A model generated the notes under the pieces. That model saw only the letters and a list, made by a program, of their open reading frames with translations, was not told where the DNA came from and made no database searches. A stretch of 64,000 nt of DNA from Podarcis gaigeae (lineage: Eukaryota). Numbering within the stretch: position 1 is the first letter of the stretch; the number at the start of each line of letters is the position of its first letter. Of this stretch, positions 1 to 64,000 are shown in pieces. The stretch lies in NCBI GenBank assembly GCA_964106915.2, contig OZ066926.1. One strand, given 5' to 3'. The position numbers were made by a program, and so were the translations under genes.

Positions 1-3000
1 CAGCCTAAAATGATTTCCCTCATCGCAGAGTGCATGTCAGAATCAGGAAATGGGGGAAGGATTCCTAACCACACAGTGCAAATTCCCGCTTGGATAAGGG
101 AACAAGAAATCACAATGGCACTTCCAAGTCTTTTCCCCACCCACTTCCTCATTCTGGATCCTGGTTTGGTGGCAACAAAGGCCAGAACCACCGTGATTGT
201 TTTGGCCAGAACACAAGAAACGGTCACTGTGAAAACAAGGCCAAAAGCCATTTGTCGGAGCAGGCAGCTCACTCTTTCTGGAGGGCTGAGGAAGATCAAT
301 GGGCAGAGGAAGCAGAGCAGGAGGAAAGTGAGGAGAGTGTAGGTGAGGTCCCGATTGTTTGCTCTGACAATGGGTGTGTCCCGATGTTTAATGAAGATGA
401 CTAGGACCACCAGTGTGAGGAGAGAGAGAGAAAGAGCGATCAATGCTAAGCTCATCCCCAGAGTCTCTTTGAAAGACAGGAAGCTGATGGTCTTTAGAAT
501 GCATTGTGATTGTTCCATGTTGGGATAATGATCTTCAGGGCATGCAACACAGTCATCCATATCTGGAGAGAACATAATACATTCAGATTTCATAGTTGCA
601 AAGCAACTACTAATGGTGCTCGGTATGGAACTCATAAGCTTAAATTAGATATATCACAGATATTTCCAGAGTAACCAGATTGAGAGTGATGCATGAGAAC
701 CCCACCTCAGCACTTTGTGTTGGGTCATGTGCAGAGGCGGAGCTACTTGCTCTGACACCCAGAGCGGCATGGGGGTGGGGCTATCTGGCCCACAGGGGCT
801 GGGCTAGCCGCCCGCATGGCAAGCGTCCCTAGAGGCCTGCTGCCCAAGCGGCAAGTGGGGGGGGGCGCTGCTAGCTGCCCGTGTGGCAAGTCTCTGAGGG
901 CACTGCCAGCGCGGCGAGTGTTGGGGTGGGTGGTGTGGCCATGTCAGCCTGCTAAGAGATTACACCCAGGGTGATCCGCACCCTCCTTCCTCTTCTACTG
1001 GTTGTGTGGGGTGCCCTGTGATGGCTTACTAACTCCCCATAAACCATCTTGTGCAGTTTAGATGGACAAAGTTGGTAAGTACAAATACAAATCAGCCTTG
1101 CATTATAATGGTTCAGAACAGGAACTCAGGAATGTGTCATACCAACTCAGATAACTGGTCCATTCAGCTCAGCATTGCCTGCAGTATATCATGGGTGACA
1201 AATCTTTTTTGGGGGGGTGGCGAGGACAATGTCCATATTCCTTTATGGGGGCTGTGGGCCAATAGGGATGGAGGAGAAATTTGAATTTGTTGACATTTGG
1301 ATGTGAAAGTTCTGTAAATTGTACTTCTTGAACCAACACAAAGCATAATAGAGTTTCCCAAAAAAATGGTACAGATCTCCAATCAAACAAAATGCACAAA
1401 AATGCATATTTCCATAACTTTTCCATAATTTCTAACATTACTGATGTTTGAAAAGTATATCTTTTGTGTTTCTTACCCTTCTGGATTGAAATCTTGCCTT
1501 GAGGACATGGAGCACAATCATAGCAGCAGAATGGCTCCCCCTCCTTCTTTTCCTTGCTGGAACCAGGTGGACAACTTGGGTTACACACAGAAAGGGGTGG
1601 AATCTGCCCATTTAAAGAAACACTTAAACATTTTAGCACACAGTAATCATTAGCACTTTTTGTTTCCATTCTCTTCCATCCAGCAGTAGGAAGACACTAA
1701 ACTACTCATTCAAAACTCGGTGCCAAGCTACTCATTTTCTTTTTCATGTGTTTTTTTTAAAAATACACACAATTTTTGATGTTAGTTAATCAAAGGTTTG
1801 AACAGAAAATTAAAGTAATGAAACATACTTTTTTTAAATTTGCCAATAAGCCTGGTAAACTGTTGGCATGACAACTTAAAAAAGAAGGAGTGAATCAGAC
1901 AATAAATAATATTATGGATGGGGATAAATATTTGATTAACCCAAAAGAAATAAGGAAAGTATTTGAAAAAATTATACTTCATTATATCACTGTGGAAAAG
2001 AGGACTGTGAGAAAATGGAATCTTAATTGAGTGATTGTAACATACCCCGAGTACCCAAAGAAAATTGGCCAGGTTTGAATGCACCCGTATTTATTACCCT
2101 GATCGCTAAACAAGATAGTGACTTAGCAAAGACAAAAAATTTCAGACCTATTTCTTTATTGAACTGTGACTATAAACTATTTGCTACAATTGTAGCTAAC
2201 AGACTAAAAAAGACATTGACTAAGTCAGTCCATGGAGACCAAGCTGGGTTCCTACCAGGCCAACAAATGAAGGGCAATGTAAGAAATGCAATTAAGTTAA
2301 GAGAGTGTGTGGAAGTGAGAAATGAACAACAGGCCACATTAATATTTTTAGATGCAGAGAAAGCCTTTGATTATATTTAATGGTCATTTTTTATTAAAGT
2401 ATTAGAGAAAATGGTAATTCTTTCCTGGCTGCAATTAAAGTGATCTATACCAATCAATCCGCAATTTTTTTTAATAAATAATATTCCTTTATACAAATGC
2501 AAAATAGAAAAAGGAACAAGACAAGGGTGTCCCCTATCTCCATTGCTGTTAGAAATATTGCTTCAGAATATAAGGACAAATAGGGAAATTAAAAGTATTG
2601 AAGTGGGATGCAGTCTCTATAAATTAATAAATATAAAATATGCAGGGATTTATGATATGTAAAAGAAACCATGGAAAGAGAAGAAGGGAAGTCATTGATA
2701 TTATAAGGATGTTAAAATGAGTATTTCCCCTTCATGGATCACTGCCTTGCCATGGCGAAGGGGCTTGAATAACTCAGAGAAGCTATGAACTATGCCGAGC
2801 AGGGCACCCAAGATAAACAGGTCATAGTGGAGAGTTTTGACCAAACGTGATCCACCTGGAGGAGGAACCGGCAAGCCACTCCAGTATCCCTGCCAAGAAA
2901 ACTCCATGGACAAAGACAACAGGCATATAAAAGTTATGACGCTGGAAGATAAGCCCCTCAGGTCGGAACATGCTACTGAGGAAGAGCAGATGACAAGTCA

Positions 3001-6000
3001 ACATCAAAAAAACAAAGATCATGGCCACTGGTCCCATCACCTCCTGGCAAATAGAAGAGGAAGAAATGGAGGCAGTGAGAGATTTTATTTTCTTGGGCTC
3101 CATGATCACTGCAGATGGTGACAGCAGCCACGAAATTAAAAGACGCCTGCTTCTTGGGAGAAATGCAATGACAAACCTAGACAGCATCTTAAAAAGCAGA
3201 GACATCACCTTGCCAACAAAGGTCCGTATAGTAAAAGCTATGGTTTTCCCAGTAGTGATGTATGGAAGTGAAAGCTGGACCATAAAGAAGGCTGATCGCC
3301 AAAGAATTGATGCATTTGAATTATGGTGCTGGAGGAGACTCTTGAGAGTCCCATGGACTGCAAGAAGATCAAACCTATCCATTCTTAAGGAAATCAGCCC
3401 TGAGTGCTCACGGGAAGGACAGATCCTGAAGCTGAGGCTCCAATACTTTGGCCACCTCATGAGAAGAGAAGACTCCCTGGAAAAGACCCTGATGTTGGGA
3501 AAGATGGAGGCCACAAGGAGAAGGGGATGACAGAGGACGAGATGGTTGGATAGTGTTCTCGAAGCTACCAGCATGAATTTCACCAAACTGAGGGAGGCAG
3601 TGGAAGACAGAAGTGCCTGGCGTGCTCTGGTCCATGGGGTCACGAAGAATCGGACATGGCTAAACGACTAAACAACAACAACAAAATGATTATTTTAAAT
3701 TGTTAAACAAAATTTAATTAAGAAAAATACATTAAAAATAATGATGCTGAAACTTACCATGTTTGAGCCCCTTTCAGGCATTCACGAAGAATGCATGAGG
3801 ATGCAAATGGGGAAGAGGATTGAGAATTCATCTTCACCAGCACAGCTCCTATTGTCCCCATGTTGTTGTTTAGTCGTTTAGTCATGTCCGACTCTTCATG
3901 ACCCAATGGACCAGAGCACGCCAGGCACTCCTGTCTTCCACTCCCTCCTGCAGTTTGGTCAAGCTCATACTGGTAGCTTCGAGAACACTATCCAACCATC
4001 TCGTCCTCTGCTTTTTAAGATGCTGTCTTTTCTCCCAAAAAGCAGGTGTCTTTTAGTTTCGTAACTGCTGTCACCATTTGCAGTGATCACGCTGACTGTA
4101 TAGAGCTTCTCCATCTTTGGCTGCAGAGGATATAATCAATTTGATTTTGATGATGCCCATCTGGTGATATCCATGTGCAGAGTCATCTCTTGTGTTGTTG
4201 GAAATGAGTGTTTGTGATAACCAGCTTGTTCTCTTGACAGAACTCTATTAGCCTTTGCTCTGCTTCGTTTTGAACTCTAAGGTCAAACTTGCCAGTTGTT
4301 CCTTTTGTCTCTTTACTCCGTACTTCAGCATTCCAATCCCCTATAATGAGAAGAACATCCTTCTTTGGTGTCATTTTTAGAAGGTGTTGTAAGTCTTCAT
4401 AGTCCCAAGAATGAGCTACAAATCTGGAGACTGTGTGGAGAGTGATCTTGTGCTCAAATCCAACCTGTAGGTTTCCCACAGGTATCTAGTTGGCTACTCT
4501 AACAACCAGGATTGTTTGTTTGACCCTCTGATCACAGGGTCATTTTCTGTATAAAATCATAAATATCTACCTTACATGAAACAAAATTAAAAAAAAATCA
4601 TTCCAGTAGAACCTTAGAGACCAACTAAGTTTGTTATTGATATGAGCTTTTGTGTGCATGCACACTTCTTCAGATTTTGTTTCGACTATGGCAGAGCAAC
4701 ACGGCTACCTACCTGTACCTTACATGGTAACAACTCAAACAATATCAACCGCAGATCAAAAGGCCAGAGATACTTTAATCTGACAACAAACTGGGAGAAG
4801 AGGTATGTTTTCACCTGGCGCCTAAAGATATGTAGGGAAGAGAGCCTCTTTGGAGGGGGCGACTGATTTTTTTAAAAAATTCTTTGGCCCCCATTGTTTG
4901 AGTCTTCCTCAGTCTAAGAAATCAATTTCCTCATTCCACTGTTGGTGAGAAAAACAGCTGCCGACAAACTCAATAGTCCCTGCTTCCTTCCCATCAGAGC
5001 AACAAACCCCTTATTCTTGACAAGAGACTCATGAAATACCCTGGGATAGAGAGACACACAAGGTAACAGTCACATGCATGCCATATCAAGATGCAGGACA
5101 AGACTGGCCATGGGTGTTATCCTGGTCAAGATGGGCCATTGGACTGATCCAGCAAGCTCACATTATGTTCTTATGTAGTGCAGAGCAAAATCTAAAAGTG
5201 CAATACCATTGTTTTCCTATATCTCATGGATGTAGGAATTATGGCCCACCTGGTGAAAGCTTCTGTGCCAAACCATTCTGTTGTCATTAAGGGTGAATGG
5301 CTGGTCAGGTGTAGCCTCTACACTCACCCTTCCAACCTTGACCCTCACAAAGGAGTTATTTGGAAAAGTGACCATGTTGGTGATATCAAAGCCAGCTTCT
5401 ACTTCCCTGTTCTCACCAAAAGATACTGTTTCTCCAGCAGAGTTGTTGAAGGAGACAGTCCTGAAGAAGGGACGGAGCTGCATTGGAAGAAAAATAGGAA
5501 CTGTGAGGTAATGAATATGTCTCTCCTTTTTGGCACTCATGATGCCTCAAGTCTGTCTGTACGGTGTTTTCTATACCAATATTTTAGGAACTGTAGCCAT
5601 TTTTGTTCCAAGCTGTGTTTGACTGCCTGCACAACTGACTGCTGTATGGAAAAGCACATGAATCTGACCTTTGAAGAGCTTTGCAAGTAAACAATGTACA
5701 ACCTATTAATTATGTAACCTGTCTTTATGCTAAGGAAGTGGTGTATTTTGGGATCAACTAGAAGGGGTACATTTTAAGGTTTTAACACCTAAATTTCATG
5801 CCTTTATTTGCTGCATGAGTTGCCATGTTAAATCTCTTCTGGGGTTCTCTCACCAAAGAGTCCAACAAGAATGATATTGTTTAGCAAGCTCAGCAAAAAC
5901 TAAAAAACACGTTTAAAATCCTCTTCCTTGCTGTTCCCCATCCCATTTCCCCAGCCACAGCTACTTTTTTCTCCAGCTCCACCTGCCAGCTGTCTCCTAC

Positions 6001-9000
6001 TCGTCTCAGTCTAGGCTGAGATCTCCCTGTAACTTCTGTGCAGTGATGCTGCTTTGGAAGCAGCAGCACAGTGCAGGATTGTATCTGCACAGTGCAGGGT
6101 TGGGTCGGTTGTATTCCAAGACCCCACTAACAGGTTCTCTGCATGCAAAGGAAGTTGCTCACACAAAAATGGGACAGGTCTGGCACTTCACTGTCTTACT
6201 CCATGAGTAGCTTTTCTGCACACAAGGGGAGAATGTGCTCTTACACTGGAGCTTGAAATTTTTCCAGATGGTGGATAATTTTGACCTTTATGACTCATGG
6301 AGAATTAAACACCCTAAGGGGAAAGATATTACACACTTCTCGGAAGCTAAAAAATCAGGGGGGAAGTTTGATGCTATCTTGATTTCTAAAGGGCTGACCC
6401 TCTTCTTAGAAAAAGCAGAAATTCTGGGAAGGACTATATCAGACCATAATCCAGTAACAATACATATGGAAATTAAAAAGCAAACAAAGGGAAGGTGGAG
6501 GATGAACAATGAGATATGGAGAGACGACCAATGGCTGACACAAGCAAAAATAAAGTTAGCGGAATTTTTCGGAGATAAATGGGAAACAAAATACAGATAT
6601 AAATGTAGTTTGGGACACAAGTAAAGCATACATGAGGGGTCTTGGAATACAACAAATGGCTAGACTGAAGAGGATAAAAGACAATAATATCGAAGAGCTA
6701 ACTAAACAGATAAGAATTAATGAAAAAGAGTTGATCAAAAATCCAAAAAGTCATGAAATATTACAAAAAATAAAGATATTTGCAATCCCATATCTCTAGT
6801 ATATTAAATAAGGAAGTAGAAAATAAAATTCAATGGGCAAAACAAAGGTATTTTGAATCTGCCAATAAGCCCGGTAAGTTGTTAGCATGGATGATAAAGG
6901 AAAAGCAAACAAAAAAAGTTATAAATAAAATTTTGGACCAAGGGGAGGAAATAACAGACCCAGTAAAAATAAAAATAAAATTCTTAAACTTTTATAAAGA
7001 TTTGTATAAACAAGAACAATTAGAGATTAATAAAATGGAAGAGTTTTTACAACAAAATAAATTACCAATAATTGAAAAAGAAGAAGTTGAGGCCCTAAAC
7101 TCCAATATAGAAATAGATGAAAGAGCACAAGTAATAAAAAAAAAATGAAGAGTGGCAAATCGCCAGGTCTTGACAGAATCACATTAATGTACTATAAGAA
7201 CCTGGAAGAAGTAATCCTCCCTATATTACAAAGAATAATGAATAATATACTGGGAAGGAAAGATATACTACAATCATGGAAAGAAGCACTGATCACTCTA
7301 ATCCCGAAACAGGGAGTGGAGTTGACAGACATGAAAAATTATAGACCAATCTCCCTGTTGAATACAGACTATAAAATCTATGCTGGGGTGATGGCTAATA
7401 GATTAAAAAAGACTCTAAACAAAATAATCAGCAGAGATCAGGCGGGCTTCTTACCGGATAGACATATAAAAGACAATACAGGAATAATAATTGACCTGTT
7501 GGAGTATGTGGAAATGAAACCAAGTAAAAAGATGGCCATGTTATTGGTTGATGCAGAAAAAGCTTTTGATAGAGTATCATGGAATTTCCTATTGGAAACT
7601 TTCAAAGGTCTGGACATAGGGGAGAGAATAATTAATGGAATTAGTGTGATATATGATAACCAAAAAGCAAAACTGCTAATAAATAACGAGATCACCGAAG
7701 AGTTCAGCATCGAAAGGGGGACAAGACAGGGGTGCCCTCTCTCATCACTTCTTTTTATTTCCACCTTGGAACCACTTTTAATAGCAATAAGAAAGGATAA
7801 AAACATAAGAGGAATTAACCTAGGAACTCAATACTATAAAATTAAAGCCTTTGCAGATGATGTAATCGTAACCACTGAAAACCCTGTGAAAAGTATCCAA
7901 AAAACGCTTGCACAACTGGAAGAATTTGGGAAGGTCTCGGGGTTCAAACTGAATAAAGGAAAATCCAAATTATTAACGAAAAATTTATGTAAGTTGGAAC
8001 AAGAGGAACTGGAAAATACAACAGGTTTAAAGGTAGCCAATAAGGTAAATTATTTGGGGGTTTGGATCACCAATAAGAATATAAACTTATATAAGGACAA
8101 TTATGAGAAGAAGTGGAAGGAAATAAAAAAAGAATTAGAGACTTGGGGAAAATTAAATTTGTCCCTGTGGGGGAGAATATATCCACAGTTATAAAGATGA
8201 TTTTTATGTTCCAAACAATACCTATAATTAGAGGCATAAAGTGTTTTAAGGAATGGCAGAAAGACCTTGCCAAGTTTTTTGGCAAGGGAAAAAACCACGC
8301 ATAAAATTTAAGCTACCAACAGAGTTGAAGGAAAAAGGAGATTTCACGGTTCCTGACCTTAAATTGTACTTTGAGGCAGTGTGCTGGACATGGATTAAGG
8401 ACTGGATATTAATTAAAAACAAGGTTAAATCCCACAAAGGATTTTTAAATCATATTATGAGAAGGGCATTATATGAAGTATGGGAGAGGAGTAAAAAATC
8501 AGTAGTTTTGCATATCACTGCCTATGTCAGATAAATTACATCTTCTGAGAGGCATTACCTGCCAAGGCCAAAGCTCCTGGATCTCTCCTTCCACCACAGA
8601 TTTGTATTTGGTCCTGGACAAGAACATGGCATGTAAAGCATGTGCCGTTGCATAGACAGCATTGTAAAGACTGTAGCTGTGGCCAGACATGGTCATCTCA
8701 AAAGCAGATGAAATGAGATTCTCCAGCTTCTCCTCTCCAGTGCAGGTTCCACTGGCCTGCTCCTCTGTACCAGAGTTTGGAAATAAACAGAGAAATACCT
8801 GTGCCCAGAACTCCTTGACAAAGCCATTTCCATTTGCCTCAAAAGGATTTTGTGCCTCAAGGAAGGATTTGAATCCTTGTACCACATTTGAATGAACTGT
8901 AAAGCAGAGGGAACCATGGAAGACTTGCATATCCAGGTTCATTTGATAGGTCAATGCCGTGAAATCCAGTTGTGCTGTCAGAATCCACACCTTGCCCACA

Positions 9001-12000
9001 GATGTCTTGGTCACATTTTCCACTTCAACTAGTGCTACCATGGATCTCAAGATAAGCATGGACTTTGTTCCTCCATAGACAACCACCACTTTGGCTTCAC
9101 TTTCCATAATAGCTTGATAAATTTGGATCCAGTAGGGATACATCACATAATACTCAGCCAAATATGTCATTTTCAGGTTTGTCTCTGTGAAGGCCAAGCA
9201 AATGCCTTTCTGAGACAACAGAGGTTTCATGGTCTGAATAAATCTCTCTCCACCTTCACTTTCTCTAGCAAGCAAACCAACCCACATCCATCCAAAGTGC
9301 AGAAGTAACTCAACAATCCCAGTGTACTGATGGGCTTCATTGGGCACCATCTTGTAGAAGGAAGTGGATTGGCTTTGACCAGCATCCTCTGGGGCAAAGG
9401 AGCCATAAATGAGCTAAACGGAAATACAGTAGCATCATGTATTATTGCAGAAGGACTGGGTATGTGCATCGAAGGCATATTCACATAGGAGGCAGAATGA
9501 GCCAGTTGCCTTAAGAAGGCAGGTTCCAGAAAGCTGGGAGGGGTGGCAGATTGCACCCTGTGTTTCTCTGCCTCCAGCTTCTTCTCTGCCATCCCTGCAT
9601 GCCCAGTTTCCTGCACTCCTGCTTTCCTCTCTTCCTTTGTTTCACCACAGCATTTCAGCACCTGCTCTCATGGCGTCTTCCCTTCCTTCCTCTCTTATTT
9701 TTTATTTTTATTTTTTTATATATAAATATTTATTAAGATTTTTGTAAAAGAAAAGCATAAGTAACAAACAACATTGCTTATATCATAACAGAATTTCATA
9801 ACTTGTTTGGGCTTCCTCACGTCTCCTGCTCCCACTTACAGTGTTAAGAAGTTTTTTCAAGCAAATTATCATCTTGTTTGCAATCTTATATCCGCTCGTT
9901 TAAATATAATCTAATAGTTCTCCCAAAGGGTTTGTCTTTTCCTTAATCTCACTTATCATCGAATTCCAATCTAGTTTAGTGGTGGCCAGTTATTTATGAT
10001 CAAGCATCCTTCTTAACATTCAATCAAATTACAATATTTTTGTAAAAAAAATTTAATTTTCTTCCAGTCTTCTTCAATCCTTTCTTCTCCCAGGTCACGG
10101 ATTCTGCCGGTCATCTCTGCCAGTTGCATATAGTCTATCAGCTGCATCTGCCATTCTTCCCTCTCTTAAACCAATTATATTGAGAATTCACATCAAGTGC
10201 CACAATGTGTCAGCAGCTGACTCCTGATAGGCAGGCTTCCAGCTTTGCAAGAGAGCAGCTTCAGTCTCCATCTGGTAGGCCATGGAGCAAAGGTGAGAGG
10301 GTGTCAGTTGGAAGAATGGAATTTGGATACATGTTTTTAGGTGTGTGTGGATAAGGAAGTGGGGTGAGATGAGCACTCTTCCATCATCACATTACCTTCT
10401 CTCCATCCATAGACACTGACAGTTTGATGCTACACATTCTATTTAATTGTGCAAAGCACACTGGGAACACTTTTTGTGAAGGGCAGAATCACTCTCCTTT
10501 GTCACTCACAACTATTTCTATATTAAACAAATACTTTCTGGATAGAAAGGATCATGGTGAATCTGTGTGAAATCCCCAAGGCAGTATCTTACCTGGGGAA
10601 TCTTGTAGATCCTCAAGATGTTTTCCAGGTAGACAGAGGTATCAAAGTCCAGTCCCCCAATAACTGCCACCAGGTGTTTCTGGATTTTGCACTCGTAATT
10701 GGGCATAAGTGTGGAGGGAAAGTTCATAGCAGCCTGGTAGGTCATCCTTTCATCAAAGTAATTGTCATAGATGTGGAATCCCAGTGTAATATTGGGTAAG
10801 ATCTTGGGGTTCTCATTGATCTCCTTGACAGCAAATACCAAGGCCAGAATATGCTGGTAGTTCTTTGGCACAACACTGCAACAAGAATTTTTTGCTGTAT
10901 CATTGGGAGATATGCTATACATGTTTTAAACAGGCCTCTTTATGATTCTTCAGTATTTTAGTGGAAATAGTGCCCTAATATACAGTGGTACCTCGGGTTA
11001 AGAACTTAATTCATTCTGGAGGTCCATTCTTAACCTGAAACTGTTCTTAACCTGAGGTACCACTTTAGCTAATGGGGCCTCCTGCTGCAGACACGCCACT
11101 GTCGCACAATTTCTGTTCTCATCCTGAAGTAAAGTTCTTAACCAGAGGTACTACTTCTGGGTTAGCGGAGTCTGTAACCTGAAGCGTCTGTAACCCGATG
11201 CATTGTATTCCACTTTTATTGCACTTGCACCAATATATGCATTTTTATGGACACTTTATGTTCATATATTCATTTTTGTTTACATGGTTTGGTTGGAGAA
11301 CTGTACTGAACAATTTGGAGAAGTGTGAATTTCAAATGATGGCTATGTTTTAGTTTTGATATATTTTTAAAGCAAACAAATTTTGGTAGCTTCACCTTTA
11401 AATATGAACTGATTTGAATTCCCCGCTTCCCAATAAAAAATATTGATATTAACTTTGGGGTCCATCATATACAGGGTGAGTCTTTTAAAAGAGGCCCCAT
11501 GGAGCATTTGTGTTCTGTATCCACGGGGCCTCTTTTAAAGGACTCACCCTGTACTTGACTACACTTTTTGAAGATCCAAAAGATCCTGCTGCTAACACCA
11601 GCATCTAAATAATTTTCTCTCATACCAACTTCCTTAGGCCTCGCTCCTGTCCAGTTCACACACAGATTGGTTTAGCAGCTAGGTACAATCTGCCTCTGAC
11701 TGTCAAACTCCTCAGACTATGTTCCTGGCTGCTTGGACAGCTGAGCTCCTTTAATGTGCTTTTATAATTTTCTCCTGGTATGAACTGGGCAGAATTTTAG
11801 CTTAATGTAGGGCTCATTCAGACTTCCCCTAGTCCTGCCATTTACCTCTGGAAAAATCTGTTCTTTACCACTTAATTGGAACTCATACCTCCCTCAACAC
11901 TTCTCCCAACTGACAGTTAACTGACATTTCTTCAGTGATCACTACCTTCAGCTGAATAAAGTCTGAATGTATCTGATTCAGTCTAAAATATTACATTCAT

Positions 12001-12623
12001 CTAGCCTGGCTTGGATCTTTGAGTGCCACCTCAAAGGGGAGGTGAGCCTTTAAGACCCCTCACATGAGAGTTTCTGAGGTGAAGATTAAGAACAGAGAAG
12101 GGCTTTCCATCTTAAACTAGGGAGGTTTAATCTTTGAGTCCTCCTCTTGTCAAACTCTCCTTGGAAGAGATTTGGTGGGATGTGGGGAGGAGAGAAACAT
12201 CAACAAGACCAGGCTCTCTCATCTCACTGACACATTCAGATCTGCATCTCCCTTCTTCCAAGCCAACTTTTCAGCTTTGTAAATGCCCCCCACCATCTGC
12301 CAGGATGTAAGTCCCCCTGAAATCAGTGGAACTAGCTTCTGAATAGAGCAGGTTAGAGCTGTGGGATATTTCAGTATCATTTGGTTAGTGGACATTTCAA
12401 TTATTTACAAGGTATTAAGAAGTTGATGGGTAGTTAGCCTTTCTTTGAAGTCTTCTTCGTCAAAAGCAGCAAAGAGGTGAGAAGCAAGTCCGCCAACTAT
12501 AAGATGACCAGGTTGGTAGTATTCATGTGGAATTCTGGACAGATCATGGACAGTGCAACTCGTGGTATGTTTGCACACCAGATGTGGCAGATGAAAGAGA
12601 AGGGGCACAATAAACTTCAGCAT
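1..12623 (-). CDS. Vomeronasal type-2 receptor (V2R, Vmn2r26-like class C GPCR), gene A; 3' end runs off window. Exons: 12623-12409, 10875-10593, 9413-8559, 5477-5250, 1603-1477, 562-<1
   Basis: Signal peptide plus [13 protein letters not shown] (ex1); [34 protein letters not shown] (ex2); MVPNE..HFGW..W (ex3); VTFPNNSF (ex4); nine-Cys domain [13 protein letters not shown] (ex5); 7TM with RANNRDL (ex6). GT-AG sites and phases match sister genes; no stop seen. Possible upstream in-frame ATG at 12647. Confidence 0.95.
732..1000. mobile_element. GC-rich non-autonomous hAT-type element in intron 5 of gene A
   Basis: Absent from paralogous introns (gggttatgtggggtgtcc); CAG..CTG ends; 8-bp flanks gtcatgtg/gttgtgtg; same family as 58304-58524 in opposite orientation. 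Confidence 0.7.
1760..2720 (+). mobile_element. Degraded L1/Tx1-clade LINE (RT fragments and 3' UTR); tail resumes at about 3684-3735 after the nested BovB
   Basis: ORF 2027..2380 with [16 protein letters not shown] and LDAEKAFD; [10 protein letters not shown] remnant near 2515-2545; many deletions. Confidence 0.85.
2721..3682 (+). mobile_element. BovB (RTE LINE), internally deleted: 5' UTR joined to ORF C-terminus and 3' tail
   Basis: ORF 3021..3530 ([32 protein letters not shown]) is the BovB C-terminus; (CAA)n tail; aaaatga TSD; nested in an L1 3' UTR. Confidence 0.92.
3861..4402 (-). mobile_element. BovB fragment (endonuclease piece plus 3' end, several internal deletions)
   Basis: ORF 4183..4479 contains [24 protein letters not shown] (APE endonuclease); 3861-4010 is the reverse complement of the BovB 3' end. 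Confidence 0.88.
4579..4715. mobile_element. Penelope-like element terminal remnant with degenerate hammerhead motif
   Basis: Perfect 11-bp TSD taccttacatg (4568-4578 and 4716-4726); minus strand CTGAAGA-aGTGTGCATGCACAC-AAAAGCTC; internal inverted gaaacaaaat/attttgtttc junction. Confidence 0.75.
6270..8500 (+). mobile_element. L1-clade LINE ORF2 internal fragment (EN C-terminus to RT), frameshifted, in intron 3 of gene A
   Basis: SDHNPV (endonuclease), [28 protein letters not shown] and FADD across ORFs 6235..8534; absent from the paralogous site in B and D. Confidence 0.93.
9697..10159 (-). mobile_element. 5'-truncated L1 3' end in intron 2 of gene A
   Basis: Minus strand [28 protein letters not shown], then 3' UTR and A-rich tail; TSD cctctctta. 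Confidence 0.85.
10983..11198. mobile_element. Tc1/Mariner (Tigger/pogo-type) MITE, one end lost
   Basis: TA|CAGTGGTACCTC terminus; same family as 56686-56881. Confidence 0.75.
11472..11551. mobile_element. 80-bp palindromic mariner-type mini-MITE
   Basis: 32-bp arms (2 mismatches) plus 16-nt loop, CAGGGTG termini, TA duplication; empty site catatacttgac in B (21770) and D (50695). Confidence 0.9.
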
Positions 12624-13124
12624 ACTGAAGAAAATATTCTTTCTCATCAAACACCCTTATTTCCATCCAGCACATGAACCTTGCTTCACAACCAACCTCA
12701 GTACAATATTCTGCCTCATCACAAACAGCACTTCTCTAACAATTCACAGATTAAAATCCTATTTTATAACTTGATTAAGAAAATAGTTAAAATCCTTCCT
12801 CTTCCTCTGTCCTCTCCCTTGTAAAGAATGGCAAGAAGCTACTATAATACCCATGTTTTGACATTGGTTAGTATTCTCTGGAAATCTACTGAGACATTAT
12901 CCAAGGGAGACTGAGTGTGATAATTATAGGTGAGATAATAACAAGCTCTCTTTACATCAGGAACATCAGAAAATAACCAAACATAATAATAACAACTCTG
13001 TTTCTGATCTTTCATTCAAGGTGGTTTCTGACTGTTTATGGAACAACAAAGGGCATGCAGAATTAAGAGCAATGAGGAAGAGAAGAACAGTGGGCCAGTC
13101 TCTTATCACTGCTGACCAGTGCAA

Positions 13125-13190
13125 ATGATTAACATGACTTCCTAAAATTTCTCACCTGAACACCAGTTCATTAGTTTTCTGACAATTATA
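13125..13190. promoter_or_regulatory. Conserved upstream block of gene A (copies at about 23338-23400, 37598-37660, 52283-52345, 62458-62517)
   Basis: gattaa..aaaatttc..cctgaaca..ttcatta..t(g/a)aca retained about 450-580 bp upstream of all five first exons; contains TAATGA on the minus strand. Confidence 0.5.
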
Positions 13191-30500: not shown

Positions 30501-30598
30501 CTAATCCGCTAAGCTGTCAATGGGCTTGCTTCGCAAGACGAAAAAACCGCTAGACGAAGAGAATTGCGGAACGGATTCTTTTCGTCTTGCGAGGCACC

Positions 30599-30646
<48 letters not shown>

Positions 30647-33517: not shown

Positions 33518-33555
<38 letters not shown>

Positions 33556-36869: not shown

Positions 36870-36911
<42 letters not shown>

Positions 36912-42061: not shown

Positions 42062-42076
42062 TTGACTACTAATTCA

Positions 42077-45674: not shown

Positions 45675-45713
<39 letters not shown>

Positions 45714-51700: not shown

Positions 51701-51794
51701 GAATTCTGGACAGATCATGGACAGTGCAACTCATGGTCTGATTGCACACCAAATGTAGCAGATGAAAGAGAAGGGGCACAATAAACAGTAGCAT
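43485..51794 (-). CDS. V2R gene D, complete, about 867 aa. Exons: 51794-51580, 50262-49980, 49214-48366, 46611-46384, 45285-45159, 44386-43485
   Basis: Exon lengths 215/283/849/228/127/902 = 2604, in frame, GT-AG; carries a private Val>Asp in TM5. Confidence 0.95.
45315..45680 (+). mobile_element. Old CR1 3' fragment abutting the exon 5 acceptor of gene D (homologous copy at about 54780-55140 in gene E)
   Basis: tttttctccctct..cataatactagaactc..tttaaaag..gattagaaaaa..gcatctggttggccact resembles squamate CR1 3' ends; identified by recall, not by alignment. Confidence 0.65.
46905..48215 (+). mobile_element. Degraded L1 fragments in intron 3 of gene D
   Basis: GKSPGPDG at about 47155-47180, RPISL..DYK and DA remnants; 3' UTR similar to 2640-2720. 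Confidence 0.75.
47206..47554. mobile_element. Mariner/Tigger-type MITE nested in L1
   Basis: TA|CCGTATTGGCCTGAATATAAGC ... GCTTATATTCAGGCCAATACAG|TA. Confidence 0.85.
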
Positions 51795-52959: not shown

Positions 52960-55900
52960 TTATTTCCTCTTTATTAACTGCTCCTTGCTGTTCAGATCCG
53001 GCCTCAACAAAATGGTGTAGCATTTGGGAGCAAAGATGGAGCCCAGTATCCCAGCACTGGAGGCGAAGATGGAGAAGATCTCCACAGCCACCATGTATTT
53101 CCCCTTGGTGCTCAGGTAGACTGGAACAAAGGAGATCCAAACACTACAAAACAAGAACATGCTGAAGGTGATGAATTTGGCCTCATTGAAACTCTCAGGC
53201 AATTTCCTGGCAAAAAACGCTACAACAAAGCTGATAATGGCCAAAAAGCCCATGTAGCCCAGGACACAGTAAAACAGGGCAACTGACCCTTCGTTGCAGC
53301 CTAGAATGATTTCTCTCTTCACTGAGTGCATGTCAGAATCAGGGAATGGGGGAGAGGTTCCTAACCACACAGTGCAAATTCCCGCTTGGATAATGGTACA
53401 TGACAACACAATGGAGCTTGCCAGTCTTTTCCCCACCCACTTCCTCATTCGGGATCCTGGTTTGGTGGCCACAAAGGCCAGAACCACCGTGATCGTTTTG
53501 GCCAGAACACAAGAAACGGTCACAGTGAAAACAAGGCCAAAAGCCATTTGTCGGAGCAGGCAGCTCACTCTTTCTGGAGGGCTGAGGAAGATCAATGGGC
53601 AGAGGAAGCAGAGCAGGAGGGAAGTGAGGAGAGTGTAGGTGAGGTCCCGATTGTTTGCTCTAACAATGGGAGTGTCCCGATGTTTAATGAAGATGACTAG
53701 GACCACCACTGTGAGGATAGAGAGAAAAAGAGCAATCAATGCTAAGCTCATCCCTAGAGGCTCTTTAACAGACAGGAAGCTGATGGTCTTTGGAATGCAT
53801 TGCGATTGTTCCATGTTTGGATAGTGGTCTTTGGGGCACCCAACGCAATCTTCCATGTCTGGGAAAAAAAGTTTTTATTTCAGACGTTAGGATAGTGACA
53901 ACTACTGCTGTGAGTATGGAACACATAAGGTTAAATTGTAGTTATCACAGATATTTCCAGAGTAACCAGATTGAAAGTGATGCATCAGAATCCCACCTCA
54001 ACCTTTGTGTTGGGTTATGTGGGGTGTCCTGTGATGGCTTGCTAACTCCACATAAACCACATTGTTATTGTTCAGAACAGGTACAGTCCATGACCATTTT
54101 ACACAAGGGTTCCATTCCCAGCCCCATTCTACACCCACATACTAGGTTGAACGTATTCCACCGCACCCGGGTGTACAATCACGCATCATTCATAGACATG
54201 TTTATTTGTTATTGCCTGAATTAAAGAAGGTGTATCATACGAAGTCATATCACTGGTGCATTTAGTTCAAAATTGCCTGCTGTATCTTACCCTGTAACAA
54301 AAATTAGATAATCTGCGTCAAACCATTCCTTTTTTTGGAGAAGGTCCATATTCCTTTGTGGGGGCTATCTGTCAATAGGGATGGAGGGGATTTTTTTTTT
54401 AATGCCACTTGAATGAGAAGGCTATCTACATTGCCCTCCTTGAACCAACACATTGACTAAAGTACAGATGCCCTTAAAAATGTGAACTTCTCTAAACATT
54501 TGTAATGCAGTTCTCCAGTCAAACAATATGTACAAAAATGCACACTTCACTAATTTGTTTATCCTTTTCCTCAACTTCTAACATGACATATGGTTGGAAA
54601 ATTATATATCCTGTGTCTCTTACCCTTCTGGAATGAACTCTTGCCTTGAGGACATGGAACACAATCATAGCAGCAGAATGGTTTCCCCTCAATTTTTTCC
54701 TTCCTGGAACCAGGAGGGCAACTTGGGTTACATACCGAAAGGGGCGAAACCTGCTCATGTAAATAATGGGGAAGAGGGTAAGGAAAAGCATTTTCTCCCT
54801 CTCTCATAATAGAAGAAATCAGAGATATCCAATGAAGCTAAATGGATTGATTAGGCGCACTTTTTCATACAATATAGCTAAAACTATGAGATTCAATTCT
54901 ACAGGATACATTGATGGGCATCAACTTGGCTGAATTTAAAAGACGATTAGAAAAACTAGTGGAGGAGAAACCTATCAGAGGCTACCACCCCTTGGTGGAG
55001 GGAATGCTTTTACTCAATGGTCAGAGGCAGTATGGTGCTGGATACCAGTTGCTGGAAATCGCAAAAGGGGAAAGTGGTGTTGTGATCATGTCCTGTTTGT
55101 GGGTTTCCCACAAGGGTCTGGTTGGCCACTTTTAGAACCTTATTTATTTATTTATTTTACCACAGGGCAGTTTGCATTATAAAACCACAAAAGGCATAAC
55201 ATGCACAAAAATAATAACAGCCCAGAGAAATATTTTCGCCTGGTGCCTAAAGATACAAAGGGAGGTGCCAGGCAAGCCTTCTTGGGGAGGGCTGATTCTT
55301 CTCCAATCTAAGAAACCCCTTTCCTCCTTCTACACTTGGTGACAAAGAATAGCTACCCACAAACCTTCACAACACCTACTTCTCAACCATCATGCACTTG
55401 AACTGCAAGCAGGAAACACCTGCTTCCTCTTCCCAAGAGACTCATGAAATGCACTTGGACGAAAAGAACCCGAAGCCAAAAGCCATATGCCATATCCAGA
55501 TGCTGGACAAGACTGGCCAATGGCATTATTCTGCACTGGTTGGGCATTGATTTGAGCCAGCAAGATCATCTTACGTTGAGATTCCTGTATCCCGGAACAC
55601 ATGACCTTCGGGATGACTTCCAACTCTAAGATTCTATTATTCTTAAGCAGTGCAGAGGAAAATGTTTAGAATCTGGCTGGAAAGGCAGGTATGTGCTGGA
55701 CTGATGATATGTAAGTAGAATAACATTCTCTTTTCCTATGTTTCATAGCTGTAGGAATTATGCCTCACCTGCTGAAAGCTTCTGTGCCACACCATTCTGT
55801 TGTCATCAAGGGTAAACTCCTGGCCTGCGGCAGCCTCCCCACCCACCCTTCCAACCTTGACTCTCATGAAGGAGTTATTTGGAAAAGTGACCAGGTTGGT

Positions 55901-58900
55901 GATATCAAAGCCAGCTTCTACTTCCCTGTTCGTACTAAATGATACCGTTTCCCCAGCAGAGATGTTAAAGGAGACACTCCTAAGAAAGGGGTGGAGCTGC
56001 ATTGAAAGAAAAAGAGTAACTTTGAAGTAATGTAAATGTCTTGTAATACATACCTAAAGGGTTTAATGCTGTAAAGTGTCCTGACAGGCTTGGCCTATGT
56101 CACTTCCCCTTAGCTTGGGAAGAAATGGGCAACAAAGCCTTCTGTTCTGCTTACTCTGTGTTTGAATTTGGTTTGAATGGAGTTCTGAGCTGCTCCTTAC
56201 AGCCACATGGATTTAAGAAGCCGCTTATTTCAGAGAAGAACGTAGTCTGAAACTACCATTTTCTATACCAATAACAAGCTTAGGAACTTTTACTATTTTG
56301 TAACCAAGCTATGTCTTCTGCTTCTGCAACTTTTTTCTGAGTGCTGTGTTCCAAAAATCTTTGAATTTTGAAGAGTTCTGTAAGTAAATCGTGTAGGACC
56401 TGCTAAGCATGTGATCTATTTTTGTGCTAGTGAAGTGGGATATTCTGGAATTCACTGGAAAGGGCATATTTTAAGGTTTTACAGTATTTCCATGCTTCTG
56501 GTTGCTGCATGTTTTGCCATGCACACAAAGGAAGTTGCTCACAAAAAACCAGGATTGGGTCCTCCTGCTTAACAGCTGTAAGCAAGGTGGCCTGATATTT
56601 CACTATGCTAGTCCTTAATGAGCAGCTTCTCTGCAAACAAGGAGAGAATATGGTCTTACATTGAAGCTTGATTTTTTTCAGGGTACAGTGGTACCTCAGG
56701 TTACATGCACTTCAGGTTACAGACTCTGCTAACCCAGAAATATTACCTGGGTTAAGAACTCCGGCGGCGCGGCATCAGCAGGAGGCCACATTAGCTAAAG
56801 TGTTGCTTCAGGTTAAGAACAGTTTTCAGGTTAATTACGGACCTCCGGAACGAATTAAGGACTTAACCTGAGGTACCACTGTACTGTTTTATGTATTATG
56901 TATTATGTATCACTGCCCAGGTCAAATAAAATGTATCTCATGAAAAGAATTACCTGCCAAGGCTGGAATTTCTGAAGCTCCTGCATCCCTCCTTCCACTG
57001 CTGCCCTGTATTTGGTCCTGGACAAGAACATGGCATGTAGAGCATGTGCTGTGGCATAGACAGCATTATAAAGACTGTAGCTGTGGCCAGTCATGCTCAT
57101 CACAAATGCAGATGAAGGGAGATCTTCCAGTTTCTCCTCTCCAGTGCAGGTTCCACTGGCCTGCTCTTGTGTATTGGAGTTTGGAAATAAACAGAGAAAT
57201 ACTTGTGCCCAGAACTGCTTGACAAAGCCATTTCCATCTTCCTCAAAAGGATTTTGTGCCTGAAGAAAGGCTTTGAAACTTTGCACCACATTTGAATGAA
57301 CTGTAAAGGAGAGGGAACCATGAAAGACTTGCATATCCATGCTCATTTGATAGGTCATTGCTGTGAAATCCAGCTGTGCTGTCAGAATCCACACCTTGCC
57401 CTCAGAGGTTTTGGTCACATTTTCCAGTAAACCTAGTGCTACCATTGATCGCAAGGCAAGCATGGACCTTGTTCCTCCATAGACAACCACCACCTTGGCT
57501 TTACTTTCCATAATAGCTTGATAAATTTGGACCCAGTGGAAATACATGACATAGTACTCAGCCAAATATGTCGTTTTCAGGGTTGTCTCTGAGAAGGCCA
57601 AGCAAATACCTTTCTGGTAGAGCAGAGGTTTCAGCGTCTGAATAAATCTCTCTCCACTGTCTCCACTAGCAAGCAACCCAACCCATGTCCAGCCAAAGTG
57701 CAAAAGTAACTCAACAATCCCAGTGTACTGATGGGCTTCATTGGGCACCATCTTGTAGAAGGAAGTGGATTGGCTTTCACCAGCATGCTCTGGGCCAAAG
57801 GAGCCATAAGTGAGCTAGAAGGAAATAAAGAAGCATAATCTGTAAATGTGGAAGACAGACTGCCTATGTCCATTGAGGGCCTGACCACACAGAAGGTGAA
57901 ATGAGCCAGTTGCCTTAAGAAGGCAGGTTCCCGAAAGCTGGGAAGGGCAGCAGATCTTGCCTCCATGGAGCTTCTCAGCTTCTGCCTAATCCTCTGCCAC
58001 CCCGCATACCCACTTCTTTGCATTCCTTTTTACCTCTCCCCGCCCCCTTTTCCTTCTTAAGTTTGTAGTCCTTGGTTTCCTGCACTGCTACTTTCCTCTC
58101 CTCCATTTCTTTTCTCCATTTCCTCCCTTTTTCTTCATCACTGCATTTCAGCTTCTCATTTCATGGTGTCTTAACCTCCCTTCCTTTCCACACATCACTC
58201 AAGTGCCACAATGTGTGCACAACTGCCTCCTGTTGTCTGAGTCCCAGCTTTGAGGATAGCAGCTTCAGTCTTCAGTCAGTAAGCTATGGGGCAAAGGTGG
58301 GAGCACTGGCGGAGGAAGAGGGGTGCGGGGGGAGCACACCGCCCCTGGCAGCGCGATCCCAGTGGGGTGCCATTGTGGCTGCCCCCCCGCCCGTGCTGGG
58401 TGCCACGCCCCCAGGATGTGCGCCACACCGCTGTGGGCGGTGTGCCATGCCCCCAGAACGCACGCCAGCCCCGCCCCCACCTGCTCTCCATCCCCCAGTG
58501 CCAGAGCATGAAACTCCACCACTGGGTGAGAGAGGCACCAGTTGGCAGAATGAAAAGTGGAAGCATGTTTTTTTTTGCTCTCCCACTACCACAGTACCTT
58601 CTCTCCATTCAAAGACTATCTATTTTTACTTCACTCTTCCCTTCTTCCTGCATGGCATTTGGAATGCTGCTGTAGCGCTCCCCCTTGGACAAGGAATGAG
58701 AAGCCAGCAGCCAGTGGCCTGATGGCATTTCCGGGTTTTCTGTTTATTCATTATGGACCCTGATTTATTTCTACAAAGTTTGCAGAGAGGTTGAATGATT
58801 TGTGAGGTGGCTAGACAATGTTGCATCTAGCAAATGTTATCCGGCACTTTCCAGTGCATTTCCCAATTGCTTTTTGGAAGGAAGCCGTTTTCCCATCACT

Positions 58901-61900
58901 TTTTGGAGTATGTTTATGTGTGTGTAGTTTTGCTCACAAAAGCACCAGTTCACCCATGCAGAATCATACAATCATAGAATTGTAGAGTTGGAAGGAATCT
59001 CAACTAAAGCATCCATGACAGATGACCATCCAACCTCTGCTTAAAAACCTCCAGTGAAGGCATAGGTACTCAAGGGAGGTGAGTGGCTGAATCCTACACA
59101 AAACTAGTGACAGCCTGGAGGGATCCTGAGATTTGCAGAGGTCACAACAATTCTAGCTCAAGTACTCCACCCATGATGCTGCCTGCCCCCAGCCCACTAC
59201 AGCTGCTGCCTCCACCTGCTACTGCTAGGAAGGAAAACATCCCACAGCTAAATGCCTCAGATGGAAGCAGGACTAGATGCAGGAAGGTGACTACTACTGA
59301 GTTAGACCACTGATCCATCTATTTCAGTATTGTCTAGATGGAGTGGCAGGAGACCTTTACAGACCTACCCAGAGATGCCAGGGATTAATCCTAGGGCTTT
59401 CTACATTCATTGTAGGTGCTCTGCTAACCCTTTCAATGGTGTGATGACTTGCCAGTGGATAAGACTAAATAGGAGAATACTATTTCCTAGCCCATGACAG
59501 ACACCCATACATTCAAACGAAGTTCACCACAAGATTGTGGATTGAGCTCTAGGGTTGCAGAGATGTTCCACCAATCCATGCAGTATCCCTTCCAGTTGGA
59601 TTATATGGTTTAAGCCTGTATTGGGGGGGGGGATGTGTGGGGAGATTCAGATGGTACAGAAGACAGCTGCCAGGATATTGCCAGATTGTTTCCAGTCTCA
59701 ATTAAAGCCCTAGAAATTGTCTGAAACTCATATATCTAAAGAGCTACCTTCTCCCATACCATTCACACTTGGGTGAGGTCAGGTCTGGCCAAAGACATTC
59801 TGCAGCCTGAGATGGAAACTGATTGCACCTGCCATTGAATCTTCCTGCAACATTGTCAATGAGATGGCATCATCTACTGAACTTGAGACACCAAGCTAGT
59901 TAGAGTCAGGGGAGGCCTGCAGCATACACTACTCATACCTCCAGTAAATAAAAATGGCCAGTGTGCTTAAGAAGGGAGAAAGGAATGCCCAACTTGAGCA
60001 GACATGTTTAAATGCTGCTGATGGCTCAATACTATATGACAGGGTGTGTGTTTTGGTGGCATTTAATTTAACTGAGCAAAGCGCACTGGAAACACTTTTT
60101 GTGGATGGAAGGACTACCCTCCTTTGTCAGTCACAACTCCTCTATTGTACAAAACCCTTCTGGATAGAAAATAGGATAGTAAACAAGTATGAAGTCGCCA
60201 AGGTGGTATCTTACCTGGGGGGTCTTGTAAATGTCCAAAATGTCTGCCATTTGGAGGGAGGTATCAAAGTCCAATCCCCCAATAGCTGCCATCAGATATT
60301 TCTCGGTGTGGCAATTGTAGTTGGGTATAAGTGTGGAGGGAAGGTTCAGAGCAGCCCTGTAAGTCATCCTTTCACTGAAGTAACTGTCATAGATGTGGAA
60401 TCCCAGGGTGATATTAGGCAAAATCTTGGGGTTCTCATTGATCTCCTTGACAGCAAACACCAAAGCTAGAATATGCTGGTAGTTCCTTGCCACCACACTG
60501 CAAAGAGAATTTTATGCTGAACCCTTGGAAAATATGCTATGCAATTTTTAAAAAGGGCTTCAGAATCATCCTTCTGTATTTCACTGCAAATAGTTCCCTA
60601 GTATACACATATCTGCAAAGCAATTTTCCCTAAAATAATGCATTGTATAAATTTCAAATGATAGTTGTGTTTTGGTTTTGTTATCTTTTTAGAGCATGCT
60701 AATTTTGGTAGGTTCACATTTAAATGTGAACTAATTTGAATCCTGCCTCTATCTCGAATAAGGGAGTACTGATACTTACTTTCGGGTCCTACATATACTT
60801 GACAACGGTATCTAAAGATTCAAGAGATGCTGTTAAGAATAATAATTTATTATTTATACCCTTCCCATCTGGCTGGGTTTTCCCAGCCACTCTTTAAAAA
60901 CACAATACAGCATTAAACATTGGAAACCTGATCTCCACTACAACAAGTCTTGACAAACTGGGGATAAATACCTAACTATTTAAGTCTCAGTTGTCCACTT
61001 TTACCTCAGCTATCTCTTGACTTTGCCTCACACCTCAACTCATTACTTCTCCCAACTGACAGTTAACTGCCATTTCTTCAATGTTCAGAACCTTCAACCA
61101 ATCACTGTCTTTTGTTCCCAAGGCCAATCAGAATGAATGTACGTGTTCCAGGCCCTGCCTATAAATATTAAATGCCATTGAATTTCTTTCCCCTTCCTGC
61201 CTTCCTATCACCAAGTAGCTATAACTGAACAGCTCTGCACAACATTAAGAGCACAAAGCATCAAACTTTTACACTCACACACTGACATAAACAGAGACCT
61301 TCAACAGAGGATATAAAGCATTTTTAAACCACAAAGCACAGAAATATACAGGTACTGATTTGATCCAATTAAAAACGTGTTTCAAAATGCAGAGAAGTAG
61401 GTAGCCTAGCTTAATGGAGTAGTTCTCATAATTTCCAAACCTGTGACATATTTTTAACTAGGAGTATCCTATAAGCCTTGCCTCACTTGGATGTGAACAT
61501 CTGGGGGTCTTGGAACCCCACCTCTTAAGAGCTCTTAGCCCAAACTTCCTGAGGTGAAGTTCAATATTCAGAACAGAGAAGGGCTTTCCATCTTAACTAG
61601 GGAACTCTTCAGCTTAGCAATAGTTCCCCACCACCACCACCTCTGCCTGGAAGTAAATCCCACTGAAACCTTTGGCACTTGCTTCTGAGTAAGCCTGGTT
61701 AGAGCTTAAGAATGTTTCTGTATTATCTGACATATGAAGTCTTTACAAGGTATTAAGAAGTTGACGGGTAGTTAGCCTTTCTTTGAAGTCTTCTTTGTCA
61801 AAAGCAGAAAAAAGGTGAGAAGCAAGGCTGCCAACAATAAGATCACCAGGTTGGTAGTATTCATGTGGAATTCTGGACAGATCATGGACAGTGCAACTCG

Positions 61901-61961
61901 TGGTATGTTTGCACACCAAATGTGGCAGAAGAAAGAGAAGGGGCACAATAAAGAATAGCAT
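52960..61961 (-). CDS. V2R gene E, complete, about 870 aa. Exons: 61961-61747, 60497-60215, 57814-56954, 55996-55769, 54750-54624, 53858-52960
   Basis: Exon lengths 215/283/861/228/127/899 = 2613, in frame, GT-AG. Confidence 0.96.
56686..56881. mobile_element. Tigger-type MITE in intron 3 of gene E
   Basis: TIRs CAGTGGTACCTCAGGTTA; TA TSD; empty site cagggtactgtttt in B and D. Confidence 0.9.
58304..58524. mobile_element. GC-rich non-autonomous hAT-type element in intron 2 of gene E
   Basis: cactggcggag..ctccaccactg TIRs; 8-bp TSD ggtgggag/ggtgagag; empty site gcaaaggtgagagg in A, B and D. Confidence 0.8.
58960..59060 (-). mobile_element. CR1 3' tail fragment
   Basis: atcatagaattgtagagttggaagg..ccatccaacctctgcttaaaaacctcc; (TTCTATGA)-type tail on the minus strand. 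Confidence 0.7.
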
Positions 61962-62928: not shown

Positions 62929-63827
62929 CTATTTCCTAATTATTAACTGCTCCTTGCTGTTCAGATCAGGCCTCAATAAAATGATGTAGCATTTGGGAGC
63001 AAAGATGGAACCCAGTAAGCCAGCACTGGAGGCCAAGATGGAGAAGATCTCCACAGCCACCATGTATTTCCCCTTGGTGCTCAGGTACACTGGAACAAAG
63101 GAGATCCAAACACTACAAAACAAGAACATGCTGAAGGTGATGAATTTGGCCTCATTGAAGCTCTCAGGCAGTTTCCTGGCAAAAAAGGCCACAACAAAGC
63201 TGACAATGGCCAAAAAGCCCATATAGCCCAGGACACAGTAAAACAGGGCAACGGACCCTTCGTTGCAGCCTAAAATGATTTCTCTCATCACAGAGTTCAT
63301 GTCAGAATCAGGGGATGGGGGAGAGGTTCCTAACCACACACTGCAAATGGCCACTTGGATAAGGGAACAAGAAATCACAATAGCGCTTGCCAGTCTTTTC
63401 CCCACCCACTTCCTCATTCTGGATCCTGGTTTGGTGGCCACAAAGGCCAGAACCACCGTGATTGTTTTGGCCAGAACACAAGAAACGGTCACTGTGAAAA
63501 CAAGGCCAAAAGCCATTTGTCGGAGCAGGCAGCTCACTCTTTCTGGAGGGCTGAGGAAGATGAATGGGCAGAGGAAGCAGAGCAGGAGGAAAGTGAGGAG
63601 AGTGTAGGTGAGGTCCCGATTGTTTGCTCTGACAATGGGTGTGTCCTGATGTTTAATGAAAATGGCTAGGACCACCAGTGTGAGGAGAAAGAAATAAAGA
63701 GCAAACAATGCTAAGCTCATTCCCAGAGGCTCTTGAGCAGACAGGAAGCTGATGGTCTTTGGAATGCATTGTGATTGGTTCCTGTGTGGGTAGTGGTCCT
63801 TTGGGCATGCAACACAGTCAACCATGT
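62929..63827 (-). CDS. V2R gene F, terminal 7TM exon only (upstream exons lie beyond the right edge)
   Basis: 899-bp exon with acceptor ttccAG/AC ATG; intact 298-aa ORF 62929..63825 paralogous to exon 6 of genes B-E. Confidence 0.93.
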
Positions 63828-64000
63828 CTGGAAAGAAAATAATATATTCAGATTTTGGATGTGTTGGAGAGCAACTACTAATACTGCGAGTATGGAACTC
63901 ATAATGTTAAATTAGAAGTATCACAGATATTTCCAGATAAACCAGATTCAAAGTGATGCCTAAGAACCCTACCTCAGCACTGTGTGTTAGGCTTTTTGGG

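Follow-up and report, generated by a model that had tools for sequence, protein, structure and literature searches.

Does each gene of a tandem receptor array follow a single line of descent, or have neighbouring copies been pieced together from one another? The question is raised by a 64,000-nucleotide stretch of the lizard Podarcis gaigeae (G000:C25:39618001-39682000, within a 1.51-Gb genome; hereafter the window), which carries a run of type-2 vomeronasal receptor (V2R) genes and was studied together with flanks of 160 kb and 170 kb, 394 kb altogether. The genes of the window are called A-F, those beyond A are a1-a10, and those beyond F are G-J, K1-3 and O1-4. An original prediction, made from the letters of the window, described these receptors as segmental chimeras of one another. 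In our reading, which we consider very probable, they are mosaic tandem copies whose nearest relatives shift along introns and exons, likely through meiotic mispairing of neighbours and exchange of DNA.

Relationships that change along the genes

Whether one tree fits every part of genes A-E was examined by scoring all 15 topologies on 12 partitions, with a null of 300 simulations on the best single tree and branch lengths left free per partition. Giving each partition its own tree improved the fit by 188.6 log units, a gain that 0 of the 300 simulations reached (at most 15.4), and the single tree that the original prediction had named as the contrary outcome is hence rejected. The same holds for the non-coding partitions only (145.7 vs at most 9.1 simulated), for exons only (31.0 vs 12.4) and for exons 1-4 (20.8 vs 11.3). 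Moreover, the pairwise homoplasy index (PHI) of the A-E coding sequence was extreme (z = -8.7, 148 sites; the lowest value in 100 one-tree simulations was -1.87, with 2 of the 100 at p < 0.05), and exon 6 gave p = 0.027 for A-E and p = 0.001 for 20 genes. This 20-gene set lacks K1-3 and O1-4; of the 30 exon groups, 27 entered the alignments and the three partial copies entered none, and approximately unbiased (AU) tests on the 20 genes were set aside in favour of the simulated one-tree test because small partitions overfit. With one tree rejected and significant breakpoints found, ectopic recombination among the tandem paralogs is strongly supported, as the original prediction of unequal crossover or gene conversion between tandem receptors had it.

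The shift of relatives is plainest in the introns. Distances between D and E are at first 0.35, 0.27 and 0.26 and then flip to 0.13, 0.09 and 0.11, corresponding to 26-35% divergence in 5' non-coding DNA and 9-13% in introns 3-5, while A and B are separated by 0.09-0.15 and later by 0.33 and 0.27. As far as the end of intron 2 the informative sites speak for C+E, in exon 4 and intron 4 for D+E, and in intron 5 for B+D+E. The pairings first proposed for exons 2-5 were recovered: C and E group against A, B and D at 25 of 50 sites in intron 1 and 13 of 22 in exon 2 (also 33 of 50 in intron 2), and a 27-nucleotide motif quoted for intron 1 occurs exactly at 36348 in C and 61392 in E, plus in one gene outside the window. 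A pairs with B in intron 3 and exon 4 (5190-5880 vs 18064-18744, 89.9%), and D with E at 7 of 19 two-versus-three sites in exon 4 and 59 of 119 in intron 4. For exon 3 the suggested (A,D),(B,E) arrangement is the best tree, but the supporting sites are interleaved with others (BE 10, AD 9, AB 6, AC 6 and CE 5 of 43).

Breakpoints were placed by triplet scans with permutation p values, and the switches in B, D and E each gave p = 0.0005. Gene B changes parent inside exon 4 at 18164-18175 (minus strand), being A-like upstream (97:11 sites) and D/E/a1-like downstream (9:38). The claim that B carries D/E-type sequence in intron 4 is true of its first ~400 bases, but after 17738 the intron follows a1 (243 of 254 sites). 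In D, exon 2 and intron 2 hold a tract nearly identical to a4 (49563-50262, minus strand; 16 of its 700 bases differ). Measured against A, D becomes a4-like at 50142-50123 in exon 2, and the likeness stops at 49153-49092, at the start of exon 3. Farther along, from the end of intron 3 into intron 5, D shares a block with E (D 44938-46725, E 56105-54406, minus strand) that is 92.2% identical over 1596 columns vs 81.1% outside. On the side of E this block spans 54406-56359 (minus strand), the gene turning from B-like to D-like in intron 3 near 56359 (67:39 vs 20:119 sites). A shorter patch joins B and E at the start of exon 3 (B 20139-20338, minus strand; E from 57814), with 6 differences in 200 bases; it covers the loop LASGDSG, and the adjoining intron 2 is not shared (21 of 100 and 41 of 100 differences). 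This patch falls outside the set of pairs that pass a global within-exon test.

Comparable switches are present in the flanks. For instance, a5 changes clade inside exon 3 (315:37 vs 66:166 sites) from an a3-type front to an a6/a8-type back, and the new type is kept into the spacer; a2 also switches inside exon 3 (p = 0.0005 for a5 as for a2, triplet scan), and a3 and D share a patch with 2 differences in 243 bases of exon 3. Seen from A-F alone, some pairings therefore name a cousin rather than the closest relative, as with a1 for intron 4 of B and a4 for exon 2 and intron 2 of D. The cleanest case of the exchange process is K2. Its exon 1 is identical to that of K1 over all 215 positions and differs from that of K3 at 16, and downstream it resembles K3 (3 of 293 vs 63 of 254), hence K2 is a hybrid of a K1 front and a K3 back; the spacers are 99% alike. 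K1-K3 are three recent copies about 98% alike (window-relative 141744-171414, loci L024-L027), with exact shared runs of up to 1654 bases. A pairwise tract scan flagged 84 of 190 pairs (0 of 200 permutations), conserved blocks and alignment quality being uncontrolled, and only triplet-confirmed tracts were used from it.

The spacer between B and A (12624-14425, minus strand) is homologous end to end with that between C and B (22826-24592; 85% over 1761 bases), hence the unit of duplication is offset from the gene boundaries. The two spacers align fully though C and B are not near relatives in their gene bodies, and the DNA downstream of A fails to align with that downstream of B.

The signalling exon and the ligand-binding pocket

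The strongest effect in the array is the homogenisation of its signalling part, the seven-transmembrane (7TM) exon 6. Among 171 pairs, the fourfold-site distance in the 7TM stays flat at 0.08-0.11 as intron distance goes from 0.07 to 0.28 (Spearman 0.02), while in exons 1-4 it climbs from 0.06 to 0.17 (Spearman 0.40). Towards distant subfamilies the two parts diverge equally (0.33 vs 0.33), and hence the 7TM is not intrinsically slow. K1-K3 differ at 0-3 positions per exon in exons 2-5 and at 24-47 of 896 in exon 6. Third-position GC content is 0.59 in the 7TM, 0.49 in exon 3 and 0.64 in exon 2. Trees of the 7TM exon would tell little of paralog history here. The pairings formerly read from exon 6, A-E, B-D and B-F, are not individually significant (triplet p = 0.18, 0.17 and 0.19); the placement of E between A and D in this exon gave an uncorrected triplet p of 0.0175. 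A gene at the far end of the array, O1 (window-relative 172286-182597), has O-type exons 1-4 (fourfold distance 0.057 to O2-O4), a frameshifted exon 3 and a 7TM as distant as that of another subfamily (0.325).

The original prediction placed the exchange in the ligand-binding domain, but an aim at this domain is not demonstrable. Painting each copy by its nearest relative, of which only totals were used, counted 234 switches, and 24 simulations on one tree gave 127-135. Exon 3 (53 vs 24-25) and exon 6 (37 vs 15-18) each carry roughly double the simulated number, and the 7TM is the most homogenised part. The ligand-binding domain recombines too. Pocket residues of the calcium-sensing receptor CaSR are given as S147, A168, S170, Y218 and E297 in the accessible portion of PMC4977154. 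By alignment with CaSR, the GGLD motif of exon 2 (the S147 region) and the exon-3 loop after VGLL (the Y218 loop) are predicted to line the pocket. Over the 20 genes this loop comes in discrete length types crossed with the exon-2 types: one exon-2 type ([10 protein letters not shown]) is joined to four loops, LASGDSG in B, LAAESG in D, a1 and a3, LARESEGG in a2 and a5, and LAVDDDSG in a4, and the LASGDSG loop is also found with the exon-2 type of E ([10 protein letters not shown]).

Such crossed combinations are what would be expected if, in addition to the exchange itself, selection kept recombinants that pair the lobe-1 pocket segment of one receptor with the lobe-2 loop of another and so opened new ligand ranges, an addition that we regard as possible though rather doubtful. 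Codon models on 16 open-frame copies, fitted on block-wise trees, prefer M8 to M8a in exons 1-4 (twice the log-likelihood difference, 2dL, 32.6; 13 sites with posterior > 0.9), and more pairs pass the global within-exon tract test in exon 3 (11 of 190) than in exon 6 (2 of 190). However, the 7TM passes M8 vs M8a as well (2dL 7.5). Recombination alone can make M8 beat M8a, and it may inflate both fits. The lower tract count of exon 6 may reflect power lost to homogenisation, the switch excess is the same in the two exons, and the positions that correspond to A168, S170 and E297 hardly vary. One position, codon 286 of E in exon 3, has nine residues among 17 copies and an M8 posterior of 1.0, and is a candidate specificity site; its neighbours of note are codons 255-260, 289 and 325.

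The diversity of binding segments is plausible as a by-product of exchange. New combinations of pocket segments would follow from homology between the copies, the process not being aimed at the pocket. Of the route to chemoreceptor diversity that was originally proposed, the combinations themselves are present, but a drive toward diversity or a benefit of shuffling is not borne out. An unlikely extension is that lacertid V2R clusters form a germline cassette system, in which a common 7TM signalling module under continual homogenisation is coupled to ligand-binding domains built from a few interchangeable pocket segments. If this were true, new combinations of exon-2 helix types and length-variable exon-3 loops would arise between species, and selection for new scent ranges would keep them. 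In any case, natural recombinants such as B vs E, D vs a4, a5 and K1-K3 differ in defined predicted pocket segments and could serve to map ligand specificity.

Origin of the mosaics

Two kinds of event could account for the tracts. Unequal crossover inside a gene would fuse the 5' part of one neighbour to the 3' part and spacer of the other, which would leave long blocks such as the tail and spacer of B, the D/E block, a5 and K2. Long blocks extending past the 3' end of a gene and on into the spacer have the geometry expected of unequal crossover within genes. This geometry is clear for K2, and it is suggestive for B, whose spacer is just 85% alike. Non-crossover exchange may in addition have copied short patches of 100-700 bases, mostly exonic, and the short bounded patches (a3/D and B/E) are probably gene conversions of this type. 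Tracts bounded by parental flanks are seen in D/a4, a3/D and B/E, where non-reciprocity is not readable from one haplotype. The copies are about 90% alike in exons and about 70% in introns, so that exons offer the homology for short exchanges. All of them share their intron phases; therefore most exchanges keep the reading frame, and no selection is needed for this.

Several observations weigh against mosaicism by exchange or narrow what can be drawn from it. With synonymous sites only, PHI falls short of significance in A-E (39 sites, p = 0.38) and in A-F (44 sites, p = 0.50) and is weak in the 20-gene set (p = 0.012), and the neutral evidence hence rests on introns and flanks; the intron alignments are in turn noisy, and distances of around 0.3 may be overestimates in absolute terms. 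The null model of the painting itself yields 127-135 switches, single short patches being unreliable. Without CpG-prone sites the Spearman contrast between exons 1-4 and 7TM shrinks (0.09 vs -0.11), and the pairs are not independent. Finally, one haplotype cannot separate donor from recipient, or crossover from conversion, for most tracts.

The weak synonymous signal, together with the weak exon-6 pairings and the AU tests, in which most single exons of A-E do not reject the concatenated tree, would suit a single true tree blurred by amino-acid convergence, uneven rates and duplications that followed one another almost at once. We consider this very improbable, since one tree is already rejected on non-coding DNA, where every partition was allowed its own branch lengths, the parent changes between runs of dozens of successive diagnostic sites in introns, and simulations with block-wise rate variation fall short of the observed switch count. 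The single tree is refuted for the long blocks; some exon-6 motifs may still be explicable by it. Even less probable is that the assembler jumped between paralogs and so produced the mosaics. Tandem V2R arrays are described as hard to assemble in the part of 10.64898/2026.10.06.756852 that was available, and the single-base frameshift of F could be an assembly error, but the window is free of gaps (1 gap in the 394 kb), and the shared tracts are 90-99% alike rather than identical, the longest exact run between A-F and another copy being 237 bases. Exact runs for E-F, K3-O1 and a4-a3 come from overlapping extracted flanks.

Independent data also carry the mosaics, contrary to the misassembly that had been named as a possible objection. 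A contig with the same species label from another study (X3) spans the B junction (18143-18224) and agrees with it at every base. In a contig from another species (X7) that spans 18137-18231, 4 bases differ, and the best-matching paralog departs from the stretch at 6 of 81. Since X3 has only ~22-32 bases and two diagnostic sites on one (downstream) side of the junction, a further point to be set against our reading, the contig support is modest. Among Podarcis proteins of other assemblies, P0047 repeats the mosaic of E (C-type exon 2, D-type exon 4), P0041 that of D (A-type exon 2, E-type exon 4), and P0062 the exon-3 switch of a5 (273 of 288 residues identical). As the last switch lies within a single exon, a mis-spliced gene model could not create it. 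P0044, an 'isoform X3' model in which E-type exons 2-3 are joined to B-type exons 4-5, could represent another hybrid or a chimera made in annotation.

The array and its place among known systems

The 394 kb contain 30 V2R exon groups, all on the minus strand, 27 with six exons and 3 partial. Six exons are typical of squamate V2Rs according to the accessible text of PMC12400810. Each of A-E is read from the minus strand and is split into six exons by GT-AG introns, whose phases are identical from gene to gene; the frames are open, without an internal stop, and count 868-872 codons, stop included. Gene A (1-12623; exons 12623-12409, 10875-10593, 9413-8559, 5477-5250, 1603-1477, and 562 to 336 bases past the window edge) has 869 codons and no internal stop, its start codon being set by homology. 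Gene B (14426-22825; exons 22825-22611, 21376-21094, 20338-19487, 18353-18126, 16225-16099 and 15324-14426) has 868 codons, gene C (24593-37145; exons 37145-36931, 35497-35215, 34426-33563, 32707-32480, 30784-30658 and 25491-24593) has 872, and gene D (43485-51794; exons 51794-51580, 50262-49980, 49214-48366, 46611-46384, 45285-45159 and 44386-43485) has 868. Gene E spans 52960-61961 (exons 61961-61747, 60497-60215, 57814-56954, 55996-55769, 54750-54624 and 53858-52960). Its exons match the Pfam families ANF_receptor (exons 2 and 3), NCD3G (exon 5) and 7tm_3 (exon 6), all above cut-off, and a Venus-flytrap domain, a cysteine-rich domain and 7tm_3 in one protein represent the domain order of class C G protein-coupled receptors. 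The nearest named proteins to exon 6 of E are lacertid 'vomeronasal type-2 receptor 26-like' proteins of Podarcis and Zootoca (91-93% identity), names that are automatic annotations, and this likeness makes a lacertid the probable source animal. The array is thus nearer to annotated V2Rs than to CaSR, T1R or GPRC6A, CaSR being only a distant match.

Of gene F, exon 6 is the sole exon in the window (62929-63827, minus strand). All copies had been supposed to stay in frame, which is true of A-E but not of F, whose exon 3 outside the window (L017, window-relative 69465-68603) has 863 nucleotides and is frameshifted, making F a pseudogene or the site of an assembly indel; genes I, a7, O1 and O4 are also broken. 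The partial copies comprise one without exons 1-2 (window-relative -100918 to -110172), a lone exon 1 beside the sole assembly gap (-123942) and a lone partial exon 6 (121475-120849), and are possibly by-products of unequal crossover. Reverse-transcriptase frames (Pfam RVT_1) mark two inserts resembling long interspersed nuclear elements, at 7121-8194 (plus strand) in intron 3 of A and at 39148-40311 (minus strand) between D and C, which are 65% alike. The frames at 2994-3530 (plus), 40158-40898 (minus) and 27876-28493 (plus) gave no Pfam match; the first two presumably resemble BovB/RTE and L2 retrotransposon fragments.

Exchange between tandem copies is a known textbook process, here in a new family setting, the squamate V2Rs. 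Lepore-type globin hybrids show that unequal crossover makes hybrid genes, and in the CEACAM family segments of the binding region have reportedly been recombined between copies. Inside arrays of this kind, trees of whole genes, the assignment of orthologs and tests for selected sites can all mislead. In the literature searched, which included few subscription papers and no supplements, we found no map of chimeric squamate V2Rs. Squamate V2R evolution has been described as gene birth and death (10.64898/2026.10.06.756852, as far as available), and the accessible text of PMC12400810 yielded no mention of conversion, recombination or 'chimer'. Gene conversion among close squamate V2R paralogs appears in the available part of PMC3590772 as a hypothesis still to be investigated; the genes here are likewise six-exon tandem copies, and the exchange hypothesised there is mapped here.

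Outside the squamates, and with the sources again available in part, gene conversion has been reported in subfamily 9 of the V2R-like OlfC genes of catfish (PMC6588630, whose GENECONV table may hold comparable tracts) and invoked for V1R clusters of mouse and other rodents (PMC2644715). These too concern exchange between tandem vomeronasal paralogs, but in the parts available it served as a side test or as an explanation of odd orthologs and came without an exon/intron map, whereas in the lizard most copies look like mosaics, and long hybrids occur beside short patches. The protocadherin clusters, as far as PMC1852091 was available, are alike in that one region, the 3' one in the protocadherins, is homogenised, the recognition region is diverse and trees are misled by the homogenised part; however, homogenisation in the lizard is partial (~11% at fourfold sites rather than > 99% identity), and the recognition domain recombines as well. 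Conversion in the major histocompatibility complex (MHC) and immunoglobulins likewise reshuffles parts of the binding region among copies, and while a role of selection is hypothetical in the lizard, the accessible part of the review PMC3966226 ties MHC shuffling to selection for new binding functions.

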